A DNA stretch of 64,000 nt. Origin: Dehalococcoidia bacterium. Its GTDB lineage: Bacteria; Chloroflexota; Dehalococcoidia; DSTF01; WHTK01. This document shows, in pieces, positions 458-4,082 of this stretch. The notes under the pieces were generated by a model. That model saw only the letters and a program-made list of their open reading frames with translations, was not told the origin of the DNA and searched no databases. The stretch spans positions 740,824-804,823 of the forward strand of contig OZ240228.1 in assembly GCA_965197795.1 (NCBI GenBank). Reading direction: 5' to 3'. Within the stretch, counting starts at the first letter, position 1; each line of letters starts with the position of its first letter. A program made the position numbers and the translations under genes.

Positions 458-1591
458 CTACACAGCGAGGAGCAGCAGCGGCGCCAGAAGCAGCGAAGCG
501 AGAAAGGCGGCAAGGCTGCGACAAGAGCTACTCACCCTGTGCGCAACGCCAAGGATCAGCCGTGTGTAGGGCCCATAGAGGAAGACGAGGACCAGCAGCG
601 ATATGACGCCGCCGGCCAGCATCTGGGTCAGGACGATCTCGAAGCCTCGAGATGAATCGAGCAGCAGGGCAGCCAGCAGCGTGTCGACCCAGGTCGCGAT
701 GTTGGCGCCCATGATGTACGGGACGACTTTGTCACGGCGAACGTAACCCTTGAGCGCCAGCGGGACGAGTATGGTCACCGAGAGGGACACCGAGAGCGTC
801 AGCAAGGTGACGAGGATGCCGAAGCCGAACATCGCGTAGCGTTGCTGCAGCTTCTGTGACAGGGCCTCGAAGCGCGGCCCGGGTCGCTCCAGGCTGGGCA
901 GCGAGCGGTCGAACAGGGCAAACCCGAGCACGAGGGCGCCGATGCCGGCCACGAAGAGGAGAAGCCGCGGCAACGCGTCGGCCAGTGGATCGACCACGGG
1001 GCCGGAAATCGCGGCGACCGCCGAGGTCAATGCACCCGGACTATTCAGGTGAACCCCGTCCAGCCAGCCCTGGTCAAGGCTCAGCAGGCCGAGCGGTATC
1101 GCGGGGCCCCAGAGCGTGATCGCGATGAGCAGGGCGACTACACCGATGTAGATGCCGTCAGGGTTGCGCCGGCCCGTCGCGTAGGAGACGAAGCCGACGA
1201 GCAACACGATCAGGGAAGCGCCCATCCTGGAGCCGTTGATCATGGAAAACGTTTCGAGGTCGCTTAGACCTCCGCCGGCGAAGAGGCTCATCGCCGCTGC
1301 TGCGACGGGTGAACCGCTCATCACCGCGTAAGCGCCAAACCAACCGAAGCCGAGGTGTCCTGCCACACCGTCGATCGAGACTACGTCGAGCACCAGCCGC
1401 AGACCCAGCGCGCCTTCTTTGATGAGCTGCAGCGAGAGCACGAAGAGCCAGACCGCAATAATGACGGCTGCGGCATGAATCGCCAGCCTGGGTGGGAGAA
1501 GGTGGCCGGGCTGCCTACGTTTGTCGATATTGTCGACCGACAAAGTCGACATATTCAAGGCCAGCCGCTCCGGACGCAAAGATCCGGGCAT
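458..1591 (-). CDS. Na+/Pi-cotransporter-like (PNaS) membrane protein
   Basis: Multi-TM protein with two internal repeats (MSGSPVAA...INGSRMGAS; LSVSLSVTILVPL...IMGANIAT), resembling the QSSS...GANIGT repeats of PNaS transporters. Confidence 0.6.
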   Translation of the reverse strand: MPGSLRPERLALNMSTLSVDNIDKRRQPGHLLPPRLAIHAAAVIIAVWLFVLSLQLIKEGALGLRLVLDVVSIDGVAGHLGFGWFGAYAVMSGSPVAAAAMSLFAGGGLSDLETFSMINGSRMGASLIVLLVGFVSYATGRRNPDGIYIGVVALLIAITLWGPAIPLGLLSLDQGWLDGVHLNSPGALTSAVAAISGPVVDPLADALPRLLLFVAGIGALVLGFALFDRSLPSLERPGPRFEALSQKLQQRYAMFGFGILVTLLTLSVSLSVTILVPLALKGYVRRDKVVPYIMGANIATWVDTLLAALLLDSSRGFEIVLTQMLAGGVISLLVLVFLYGPYTRLILGVAHRVSSSCRSLAAFLASLLLAPLLLLAV

Positions 1592-1602
1592 CGAGGCGCT
1601 TG

Positions 1603-2763
1603 CTACTTGCCCCGGCTGGCGTCGATCAGGATCTGCGCCACCTCGGGCCGGCTGAACTCGACGGGCGGCATCTGTCCCTCGGCGAGCATCTCCCGGACAC
1701 GGGTGCCTGAAAGGCTAACGTGTTCGTCGTCGCCGTGGGGACAGGTCTTTGCGGTGCTCATCGAACCGCACGTGCGGCAGAAGAAGCTGTTCTCGAAGAA
1801 CATCGGCGTGATGCCGAGGTCGCCCGGCGCGAACTCGCGAAAGATGTGCTGCGCGTCGTAGGTGCCGTAGTAGGAGCCGACGCCGGCGTGGTCGCGCCCG
1901 ACGATGAAATGAGAGCAGCCGTAGTTCTTGCGCACCAGGGCGTGAAAGATCGCCTCGCGCGGGCCGGCGTAGCGCATCGCCGCTGGGAACACCGAGAGCA
2001 ACACGCGACCCTCGGGGTAGTAGTCGGCGAGCAAGGCTTCATAGCAGGCCATGCGCACGCTGGCGGGAATGTCGTCGTCCTTGGTCGCGCCGACCAGCGG
2101 GTGCAACATCAGCGCGTCGACCGTCTCCATGGCGCACTTTTGAATGTATTCGTGGGCGCGGTGCACCGGGTTGCGGGTCTGAAAGCCGACGATCGTTTTC
2201 CAACCCTTCTCCGCGAAGGCGGCACGCGTCTGCTTCGGGTCGCGGCGGTGTTGCAGAAACTCGGAGTGCGCTTGACGCTGGAAGAGCCGGATCGGCCCGC
2301 CGATCAGCATGTCTTCCTGCGCGTAGACGGCGGCGACGCCGGGATGGGCTGCTTCATCGGTGCGGTAGACATGACGCGCTTCGTCTTGCTTGTCGTACTC
2401 GAAGGCTTTCTCGACGTCCATGACGGCCAGCGTGTTGCCGTCCTCATCCGTCAGGGCGATTTGCTTGCCCTCGAAGCTCTTGGCGTCGGACGCGGCGGCA
2501 GAGAGGGTCACGGGTAGCGACCAGGCCGCCCCACCGGCGAGGTGCATGTCATTGACGACTCCGCGGTAGTCGCCGCTGGTCATGAACCCGGTGAGTGGGC
2601 TGAATGCGCCCACCGCGATCATCTCGAGGTCGGACAGCGGCCGCATGCCGAGTGCCAACTTGGGTAGCGACTTCGCGGTCTCGGCCAGCGAGGCGGCTTC
2701 TGCGCCGACGGCTACGCGGTTGACCAGGTGCCCGCCGTGCGGCGCGATCAATTCGTCAGACAT
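1603..2763 (-). CDS. sat: Sulfate adenylyltransferase (ATP sulfurylase)
   Basis: GFQTRNPVHRAHEY, MRYAGPREAIFHA, VGRDHAGVG motifs. Confidence 0.97.
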   Translation of the reverse strand: MSDELIAPHGGHLVNRVAVGAEAASLAETAKSLPKLALGMRPLSDLEMIAVGAFSPLTGFMTSGDYRGVVNDMHLAGGAAWSLPVTLSAAASDAKSFEGKQIALTDEDGNTLAVMDVEKAFEYDKQDEARHVYRTDEAAHPGVAAVYAQEDMLIGGPIRLFQRQAHSEFLQHRRDPKQTRAAFAEKGWKTIVGFQTRNPVHRAHEYIQKCAMETVDALMLHPLVGATKDDDIPASVRMACYEALLADYYPEGRVLLSVFPAAMRYAGPREAIFHALVRKNYGCSHFIVGRDHAGVGSYYGTYDAQHIFREFAPGDLGITPMFFENSFFCRTCGSMSTAKTCPHGDDEHVSLSGTRVREMLAEGQMPPVEFSRPEVAQILIDASRGK

Positions 2764-2792
2764 GAATTGGTTCCTTATCTAAGGTGTGCAGG

Positions 2793-3338
2793 CTACTTTG
2801 CTCCGGCCGGCGCGATGTAGCCTTTCTGCTCCAGGCAGGCGAGGATCTTGGCCAGGCTCTCGTCCATCGATTCCTGTTCGGTGTCGACGACGACCTCCGG
2901 GTTCAGCGGCTCCTCGTACGGGTCGGAGATGCCGGTGAAGTTTTGAATCTCACCGCGCAGCGCCTTTTCGTAGAGGCCCTTGACGTCCCGGCGCGTGAGC
3001 TCTTCGATGCTGCACTTGGCGTAGACCTCGACGAAGTCGCCGATCAGGCCGCGGTTCTGGTCGCGGATGTCGCGGTAAGGCGAGATCGCCGCCGTGATGA
3101 CCGCGACGCCGTTGCGGGCCAGCAGGTGTGCGACAAAGCCGATGCGCAGGATGTTGGTGTCGCGGTCTTCTTTGCTGAACCCCAGGCCCTTGCTGAGGTT
3201 GGTCCGCACGATGTCACCGTCGAGAATCTCGACGTTGTGGCCGCGCTCCTTGAGCGCCGGCTGCAGCGCCTCGGCCAGCGTCGATTTGCCGGCGCCGGAC
3301 AAGCCGGTAAACCAGATCGTGAATCCGTTGCTCGCCAC
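2793..3338 (-). CDS. cysC: Adenylyl-sulfate (APS) kinase
   Basis: [15 protein letters not shown]-loop, [19 protein letters not shown]. Confidence 0.97.
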
Positions 3339-4082
3339 TCAGGCGTCTCCTTTGGTTGTATGCACGATCTCGAGGGTCCCCTCCTGGATGCCGCACTCTT
3401 CCTTATCGAGGCCGGCCCAGCGTCCCGAGCGCGGATCGTCGCCAGGGCGAACCGGTTTGGTGCAGTTGGTGCAGCCGATGCTGGGGTAGCCGAGGTCGTG
3501 CAACTGGTTGTACGGCACGTCGTTGGCGGCGATGTAAGCCCAGACCTGCTTCTCGTCCCAGGCTGCCAGCGGGTTCAGCTTGACGAGGCCGAACTTCTCG
3601 TCCCAGTCGACGATCGCCACGTTGGCGCGTGTCTTCGACTGATCGCGGCGCATGCCCGAGATCCAGGCCGTCTTGCCGTCGAGCGCCCGATGGTTTGGTT
3701 CCACCTTGCGGAGGTCGCAACAAAGGTCGGGGTTGCTGCCCCACAGCTCCGCGCCGTGCTGCTCCGCCTGGGCCTCTGGCGTCAGCAGCGACTTGTAGCC
3801 GATCGGCTTGAAGCCGTACTTCTGCTCGCAGACGTCACGCAGCCGGTAGGTCTCCGGGAAGAGGAAATCGGTATCGAGGTAGAAGACCTCGACGCGGGGG
3901 TCGATTTTCATGACCATGTCGAGCAGGGCCATGCCGGTCGGGCCGCCGAAGCTGCAGGCCAGCGTCAGGCCGGGCTGAAACTCACCGACGGCCCAGCTCA
4001 GGACGTCCTGGGGCGCTTTGCCTTCCATCGCCGCGCTGAGTTGCGCCAACGTGTCGCTGTCGTAGGTTCTTGCTTCGGACAC
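3339..4082 (-). CDS. cysH: APS/PAPS reductase, [4Fe-4S] type
   Basis: LDTDFLFPET, CCDLRKVEP, GYPSIGCTNCT, SGRW...ECG. Confidence 0.95.
   Translation of the reverse strand: MSEARTYDSDTLAQLSAAMEGKAPQDVLSWAVGEFQPGLTLACSFGGPTGMALLDMVMKIDPRVEVFYLDTDFLFPETYRLRDVCEQKYGFKPIGYKSLLTPEAQAEQHGAELWGSNPDLCCDLRKVEPNHRALDGKTAWISGMRRDQSKTRANVAIVDWDEKFGLVKLNPLAAWDEKQVWAYIAANDVPYNQLHDLGYPSIGCTNCTKPVRPGDDPRSGRWAGLDKEECGIQEGTLEIVHTTKGDA

Follow-up and report, generated by a model that had tools for sequence, protein, structure and literature searches.

Why is a relative of sodium-phosphate carriers encoded among genes for sulfate activation? The question is raised by a stretch of DNA from a member of the Dehalococcoidia, a Chloroflexota bacterium of soil or sediment type. 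Its genome is a single contig of 3.2 Mb and is 94% complete. We analysed 64,000 nucleotides (contig OZ240228.1, positions 740,824 to 804,823 of the forward strand; hereafter, the window). On the minus strand, cysH, cysC, sat and a transporter gene (458..1591) form a packed run, and an rrf2 regulator gene comes next. The transporter, of 377 amino acids, is a divergent PNaS/SLC34-like protein. The sodium-phosphate carrier family includes the human kidney and gut phosphate transporters. A first-pass annotation of the window suggested import of sulfate, or another oxyanion, and our results support the sulfate option. From gene context, sequence and transporter inventory, we consider it likely that the protein is a secondary sulfate importer, acting as permease of the assimilatory operon. 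Note that we infer the substrate, as well as the direction of transport and the coupling ion.

Gene context of the transporter

Open reading frame coordinates place exactly 0, 29 and 11 bp between successive genes of the cysH-cysC-sat-transporter run, as the first-pass annotation had proposed. The rrf2 start, at position 366, is 91 bp beyond the transporter stop codon. We surveyed 61 genomes of the host's order (one of these, G048, is unpublished and forms one row of this tally and of the next; no conclusion depends on it alone). The transporter was found in 40, and in 39 of them its gene directly follows sat. In the 40th, the run is interrupted by a contig end, with rrf2-cysK still downstream. 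Hence, the arrangement is not due to chance. Twelve genomes without a match for Sat, in which cysDN was not searched, are also without the transporter. The other nine have Sat only. Three of these are losses, considered below, and two have short runs of cys or 3'-phosphoadenosine 5'-phosphosulfate (PAPS) genes. In G026, a TSUP gene is found in place of the transporter after cysC-sat. The last three (G024, G038, and G047) have dissimilatory-type sat-aprB-aprA clusters (L200:4835-10531, L202:1713-4286, and L204:5559-9485). Each of these clusters has a chromate-transporter gene (PF02417, Pfam-confirmed in L202 and L204) immediately upstream of sat; its product is a possible sulfate carrier for the sat-aprBA cluster. 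Transporter copies in G013 and G015 (L206:7043-7992 and L014) are split by frameshifts, reflecting sequencing error or decay. A contig from an 'Alphaproteobacteria' bin (L007) was rejected as an occurrence in a second phylum. Its cysH and cysC are 78-91% identical to those of the window, with many frameshifts, and it is probably misbinned Dehalococcoidia DNA.

Close homologs of the transporter are from Dehalococcoidia. Among 157 homologs, from genomes, plasmids and metagenomes, 57 are beside sat/cysN or rrf2-cysK, and 76 are beside the gene for a universal stress protein (USP). Neither neighbour was found for 24, many of them on short contigs, and no locus has both. Linkage to sulfur genes, on which the earlier proposal depended, held for the transporter's own clade and failed among the USP-linked members, which make up more of the subfamily. 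Two clades, each with support of 100/99, comprise the sulfur-linked proteins. Assimilatory operons make up the first and, where cysDN replaces sat, the transporter gene is directly behind cysDN (L090 and L091). Linkage is also kept under altered gene order (L134). The second clade is found in glycan clusters that have sat/cysC and sulfotransferase genes, and are without cysH, sir and cysK (L114, L117, L134, L214, and L216). A long-branch copy, from a third clade, also belongs to a sulfotransferase cluster; here, sat-cysC is at a distance of 12 kb. Assimilation and PAPS-dependent sulfation have a single input in common, sulfate, and we regard this as the most discriminating evidence.

The USP-paired form is found in Chloroflexia, Anaerolineae-type contigs, Thermoplasmata and haloarchaea. 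The haloarchaeal proteins, annotated 'sodium:phosphate symporter' in RefSeq, belong with their Chloroflexia kin to the same subfamily and have the same pocket; a USP gene, instead of sat, is the partner, and the name derives from the family only. Some copies are unusual. In a Planctomycetota sequence (P0129, L087:8001-9830), the transporter is part of a fusion, and its C-terminal region is similar to the USP proteins encoded beside the transporter at other loci (31% by tblastn, with no Pfam match). One metagenome contig has a tandem transporter pair (L150:371-2599), and a lone STAS-domain gene (L212:11665-12033) is 500 bp behind another copy.

The inventory of other carriers is consistent with a role in sulfate uptake. 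In searches with positive controls, the host genome had no match for SulP, PiT/CysP (PF01384), CysT, DASS, CysZ (EI24), YeeE or CitMHS. Across the order, SulP is in 3 of the 61 genomes and CysT is in none. For phosphate uptake, the host genome has pstSCAB-phoU.

Family membership and the altered binding pocket

The transporter matches PF02690 with 29.7 bits, through the second repeat only. Since the gathering cut-off is 29.1, membership of PNaS, as first assigned, passes by just 0.6 bits. Homologs, mostly also 377 amino acids long, score 32-42 bits with two matching stretches. At E<=1, Pfam returns just one further row, which is weak and unrelated. The only solved structures related by sequence are chains of zebrafish Slc34a2a (phmmer E 4e-4, a weak match). 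Comparison of profiles with a Chloroflexota NptA-PhoU protein gave a probability of 90% (E 1.7e-6). In the AlphaFold model (pLDDT 77.6), a transmembrane (TM) pattern of TM-hairpin-TM-TM occurs twice, and the helices are broken at the two motifs described below (residues 91-92 and 266-267). The two halves align motif on motif, as inverted repeats with re-entrant hairpins. A fold search produced no clear match among solved structures: the best rows were ArsB/TRAP/DASS hairpin carriers (Z 8-10, root-mean-square deviation 5.5-9) and SLC34A2 entries were not among the rows; the top atlas row was a PF02690 cluster (TM-scores 0.44/0.68). By profile and repeat build, the transporter is a PNaS/SLC34 homolog.

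Tests for the characterised members of this family failed. The NCBIfam Na/Pi models gave 14.7 bits, against a cut-off of 50, for NF037997 and 10.1 bits, against 306, for TIGR01013. No PhoU domain (PF01895) was detected in the protein, while a Chloroflexota NptA-PhoU control (L208) matched PF01895. Profiles of known sulfate permeases (SulP, CysP/PiT, DASS, CysZ, TSUP, and CysTW) did not match either. Judged by the NCBIfam models, the defining motif and the Na+ sites, the transporter is outside the characterised Na+/Pi cotransporters. Bacterial PNaS proteins (TC 2.A.58), such as NptA of Vibrio cholerae and Staphylococcus aureus, and YjbB of E. coli, have the PF02690 repeat in common with it. However, it is far under the NptA cut-offs and has no PhoU, a domain carried by 84% of NptA genomes in a recent survey (PMC13170248). 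Note that many groups in that survey have no assigned function (PMC13170248). The L208 control also retains the QSSS motif, unlike the 377-residue protein.

The equivalents of QSSS are, as the first-pass annotation stated, MSGS in repeat 1 (residues 91-94; 1310..1321, minus strand) and LSVS in repeat 2 (residues 266-269; 785..796, minus strand). They align with each other as internal repeats and, when the protein is aligned with zebrafish Slc34a2a, LSVS falls on the QSSS motifs of the latter. Compared with SLC34/NaPi-II proteins (Slc34a2a, PDB 9Z60-9Z66), the transporter has the same TM-hairpin-TM-TM inverted repeats, hairpin-tip serines, and equivalents of Asn462 and Thr465. It differs in that QSSS has become (L/M)SGS and (L/M)SVS, ligands for Na1 and Na2 are gone, there is no large extracellular loop, and the gene is located in sulfate operons.

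Ligand positions were taken from a cryo-EM study of SLC34A2 (bioRxiv 10.64898/2026.05.25.727688), with the TM3/TM6 ligands His220, Asp221 and His491 mapped by spacing alone. Side chains that bind phosphate are retained: Ser159, Ser161, Ser432, Ser434 and Thr465 correspond to Ser92, Ser94, Ser267, Ser269 and Thr300. The backbone-amide ligands Ser160 and Ser433 are Gly93 and Val268. Both motif glutamines are gone (Gln158 is Met91 and Gln431 is Leu266), and Thr192 is Ala125, with alanine in 74 of 82 subfamily representatives. In human SLC34A2, Q158A and T192A each abolish import of inorganic phosphate (Pi; bioRxiv 10.64898/2026.05.25.727688). Na+ ligands have also changed. Asn189 is Arg122, Asn196 is Val129, Thr197 is Leu130 and Thr468 is Asp303; Asn462 is retained, and hydrophobic residues occupy the Na1 and Na2 ligand positions. 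Arg122 (1226..1228, minus strand), placed at the Na3 ligand by the repeat alignment, is found in 81 of the 82 representatives, and in every member of the sulfur-linked (63/63) and USP-linked (76/76) context groups. Asp303 (683..685, minus strand), placed at the Na4 ligand by alignment to the Slc34a2a repeat, is found in 78. The representatives reach down to about 27% identity. Hence, these proteins make up a well-defined subfamily that selection maintains. The near-invariance of Arg122 and Asp303 also ruled out a decayed NptA.

The position of the gene, together with the altered pocket, therefore suggests sulfate import. In the mechanism we propose, a tetrahedral oxyanion would sit between the hairpin tips, contacted by Ser92, Ser94, Ser267, Ser269, Thr300, backbone amides and helix dipoles. 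The site would no longer be tuned for HPO4(2-), because both glutamines and the Thr192 equivalent have gone. Arg122 would place a permanent positive charge at the site that, in SLC34, is taken by the structural Na3. Since the Na1 and Na2 sets are lost, and the Na4 position has Asp303 with Glu/Gln323, coupling is probably via one cation site, which would use H+ or Na+. Imported sulfate would be converted by Sat to adenosine 5'-phosphosulfate (APS), then by CysC and CysH to sulfite. The latter would pass to a sulfite reductase encoded elsewhere, and on to CysK/CysM.

Sulfate import weighed against other roles

Several observations count against sulfate import. Three relatives, with genomes 93-96% complete (G004, G005, and G057), have lost the transporter from an intact operon and are without SulP or CysT. 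Given such clean losses, the transporter is not indispensable. The host genome has two TSUP genes that could supply sulfate, and the TSUP family includes a reported sulfate carrier. Most of the subfamily, in Chloroflexia and haloarchaea, is USP-paired and without sulfur genes, and 7 USP-type carriers also have CysT. The same pocket residues occur in 76 USP-linked homologs without nearby sulfur genes, haloarchaeal proteins included. Hence, the motif is not a marker of a sulfur-specific branch. No pocket residue separates sulfur-linked from USP-linked members; differences are in loops (for example, the YRP and RREN stretches of the USP-linked proteins). In the second of the sat-linked clades, three of the five contigs examined have no sulfur gene within 10 kb. 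Finally, a single origin of both sat-linked clades was not rejected (p-AU 0.588), and they group in 22% of bootstrap replicates. Independent origins could thus not be shown, and the clades may be sisters with one origin. Related genomes are also not independent observations. As a separate observation, one of the host's TSUP/TauE genes (L073, G000:C1:1123624-1124454) carries an internal, in-frame TAA stop.

Could the protein still be a phosphate carrier, either an importer or a YjbB-like exporter, taken into the operon on a single occasion and passed down with it since? To our knowledge, all PNaS members tested so far move Pi. PF02690 is the sole family match, and the four serines and the Thr465 equivalent remain. 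Asp303 could also take a hydrogen bond from HPO4(2-). Capture would fit with a single origin of the sat link and with dispensability in three relatives. Set against this, residues that mutants of SLC34A2 show to be needed for Pi import have been lost, and the absence of PhoU distinguishes the protein from canonical NptA of the same phylum. The genome already has Pst, and no pst/pho neighbours were found at about 157 loci. Moreover, the transporter is retained across swaps of sat for cysDN and next to sulfotransferases. We regard a phosphate carrier as improbable.

Another sulfur oxyanion could be moved, with thiosulfate entering or sulfite leaving, or the protein could be a broad oxyanion carrier; in either case, the whole subfamily, USP-paired members included, would have this role. 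Neighbouring genes give this some appeal. The cysK and cysM genes are further along the cluster. Copies of the third clade (L172, L183, L169, and L088) are divergent from genes resembling those for DsrE and sulfide:quinone reductase, or from Rrf2 and a molybdopterin reductase with NrfD, and have an amidohydrolase gene downstream. A Thermoplasmata copy is behind a TSUP gene. However, the PAPS-only sulfotransferase clusters produce no sulfite and cannot use thiosulfate. In addition, the transporter is tied to sat/cysDN, and a second promoter separates it from cysK. This explanation is similarly improbable.

Least likely, and in our view very improbable, is a channel-like or sensing protein that lets flux be pulled by Sat, or reports sulfate status: most Na+ ligands are lost, the Na1/Na2 positions are hydrophobic, and the USP that accompanies most subfamily members, as a partner gene or a USP-like fusion, points to regulated gating, but invariant Arg122/Asp303 with conserved Glu323 resemble a coupling site, and the USP partner is gone in sulfur-linked clades.

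Sulfate import by the operon's transporter thus accounts best for the gene contexts, and the USP-paired majority, with its identical pocket, can be understood in more than one way. Sulfate, or oxyanions in general, may be carried by all members; specificity may be determined elsewhere; or the operon may have acquired a phosphate carrier on one occasion. Tentatively, and with rather less than even confidence, we suggest that the entire Arg/Asp subfamily of SLC34/PNaS, from Chloroflexota, other bacteria and archaea, is a new family of sulfate transporters. Its members would be gated by USP in most lineages and ungated in sulfate operons, and a fixed arginine would replace the structural Na+.

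A precedent of a kind exists. CysP (YlnA) of Bacillus subtilis is a PiT-family protein, encoded in a cysH/sat/cysC operon, that has altered signature residues and transports sulfate (PMC5840216). Fold and family are unrelated to those of the transporter, and the apparent likeness is that each is a relative of phosphate carriers in a sulfate operon. A survey of sulfate carriers names SulT, SulP, CysP, DASS and CysZ/TSUP, not PNaS, and leaves room for families yet to be described (PMC5840216). A PNaS/SLC34 sulfate carrier was not reported in the papers found, a set that excludes most subscription journals. While the homology is to a known fold, sulfate import would probably be new for the family.

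In many prokaryotes that use sulfate, no carrier for it has been recognised. If our proposal is correct, the transporter would provide the uptake step throughout an order of Dehalococcoidia, and in the sulfated-glycan clusters, and the widespread 'Na+/phosphate symporter' annotation would need correcting. If it extends to the whole subfamily, human SLC34 would have a natural, substrate-switched, counterpart. With structures of SLC34A2, and a compact natural variant of 377 residues, discrimination between phosphate and sulfate, and the role of structural Na3, become directly testable in a medically relevant fold.

Promoters, regulator and neighbouring genes

The cysH operon has a predicted sigma70-type promoter (TTGACA-17-TATTCT; 4128..4156, minus strand), the sole promoter-like site in positions 1-5000, and the same layout precedes cysH in relatives. 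The rrf2 gene has its own conserved promoter and operator, as read from sequence comparison: a -10 box (TATAAT) and operator (384..412, minus strand) are kept in about 40 relatives. We built an operator matrix from 35 sites upstream of rrf2 in relatives. In a genome-wide scan, the rrf2 operator had the top score (30.7). A putative operator right behind the -10 box of the cysH promoter (4108..4128, minus strand) scored 13.0, ranking 11th. Scores elsewhere were 8.7 for the sir site and 0.8 for pstS. That the weaker copy behind the cysH promoter is an Rrf2 site is suggestive at most. Repression of the cysH operon by the Rrf2 protein is probable.

All genes of the run are on the minus strand. cysH (3339..4082) encodes an APS/PAPS reductase of 247 amino acids, with PF01507, NF002537 and TIGR00434 above cut-off. 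cysC (2793..3338) encodes an APS kinase of 181 amino acids (PF01583, NF002059, and TIGR00455), and sat (1603..2763) an ATP sulfurylase of 386 amino acids (PF01747 with PF14306, NF003166, and TIGR00339). The Rrf2 regulator, of 144 amino acids (1..366, extending past the window edge), matches PF02082; its best NCBIfam model, CymR, is below cut-off. Beyond the left edge, cysK, a ThiS-ThiF (MoaD-MoeB) fusion, a second ThiS-type carrier and cysM continue the sulfur cluster. Hence, the transporter is flanked by sulfur genes on either side. The stretch from cysK to cysM (L001:11588-14922) resembles a CysO/CysM-type sulfur-carrier route to cysteine, and is conserved order-wide. In the host genus, the sulfite/nitrite reductase gene is away from the operon (G000:C1:2502352-2504181), with a weak operator-like sequence upstream. 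In families f4 and f5, the sulfite reductase gene is the first gene of the operon. Elsewhere in the window, an open reading frame of 400 amino acids (6675-7877) resembles a fusion of an S-adenosylmethionine methyltransferase with an HPP-type membrane domain. In G004, a comparable membrane part has an open reading frame of its own (L197:13364-13894).

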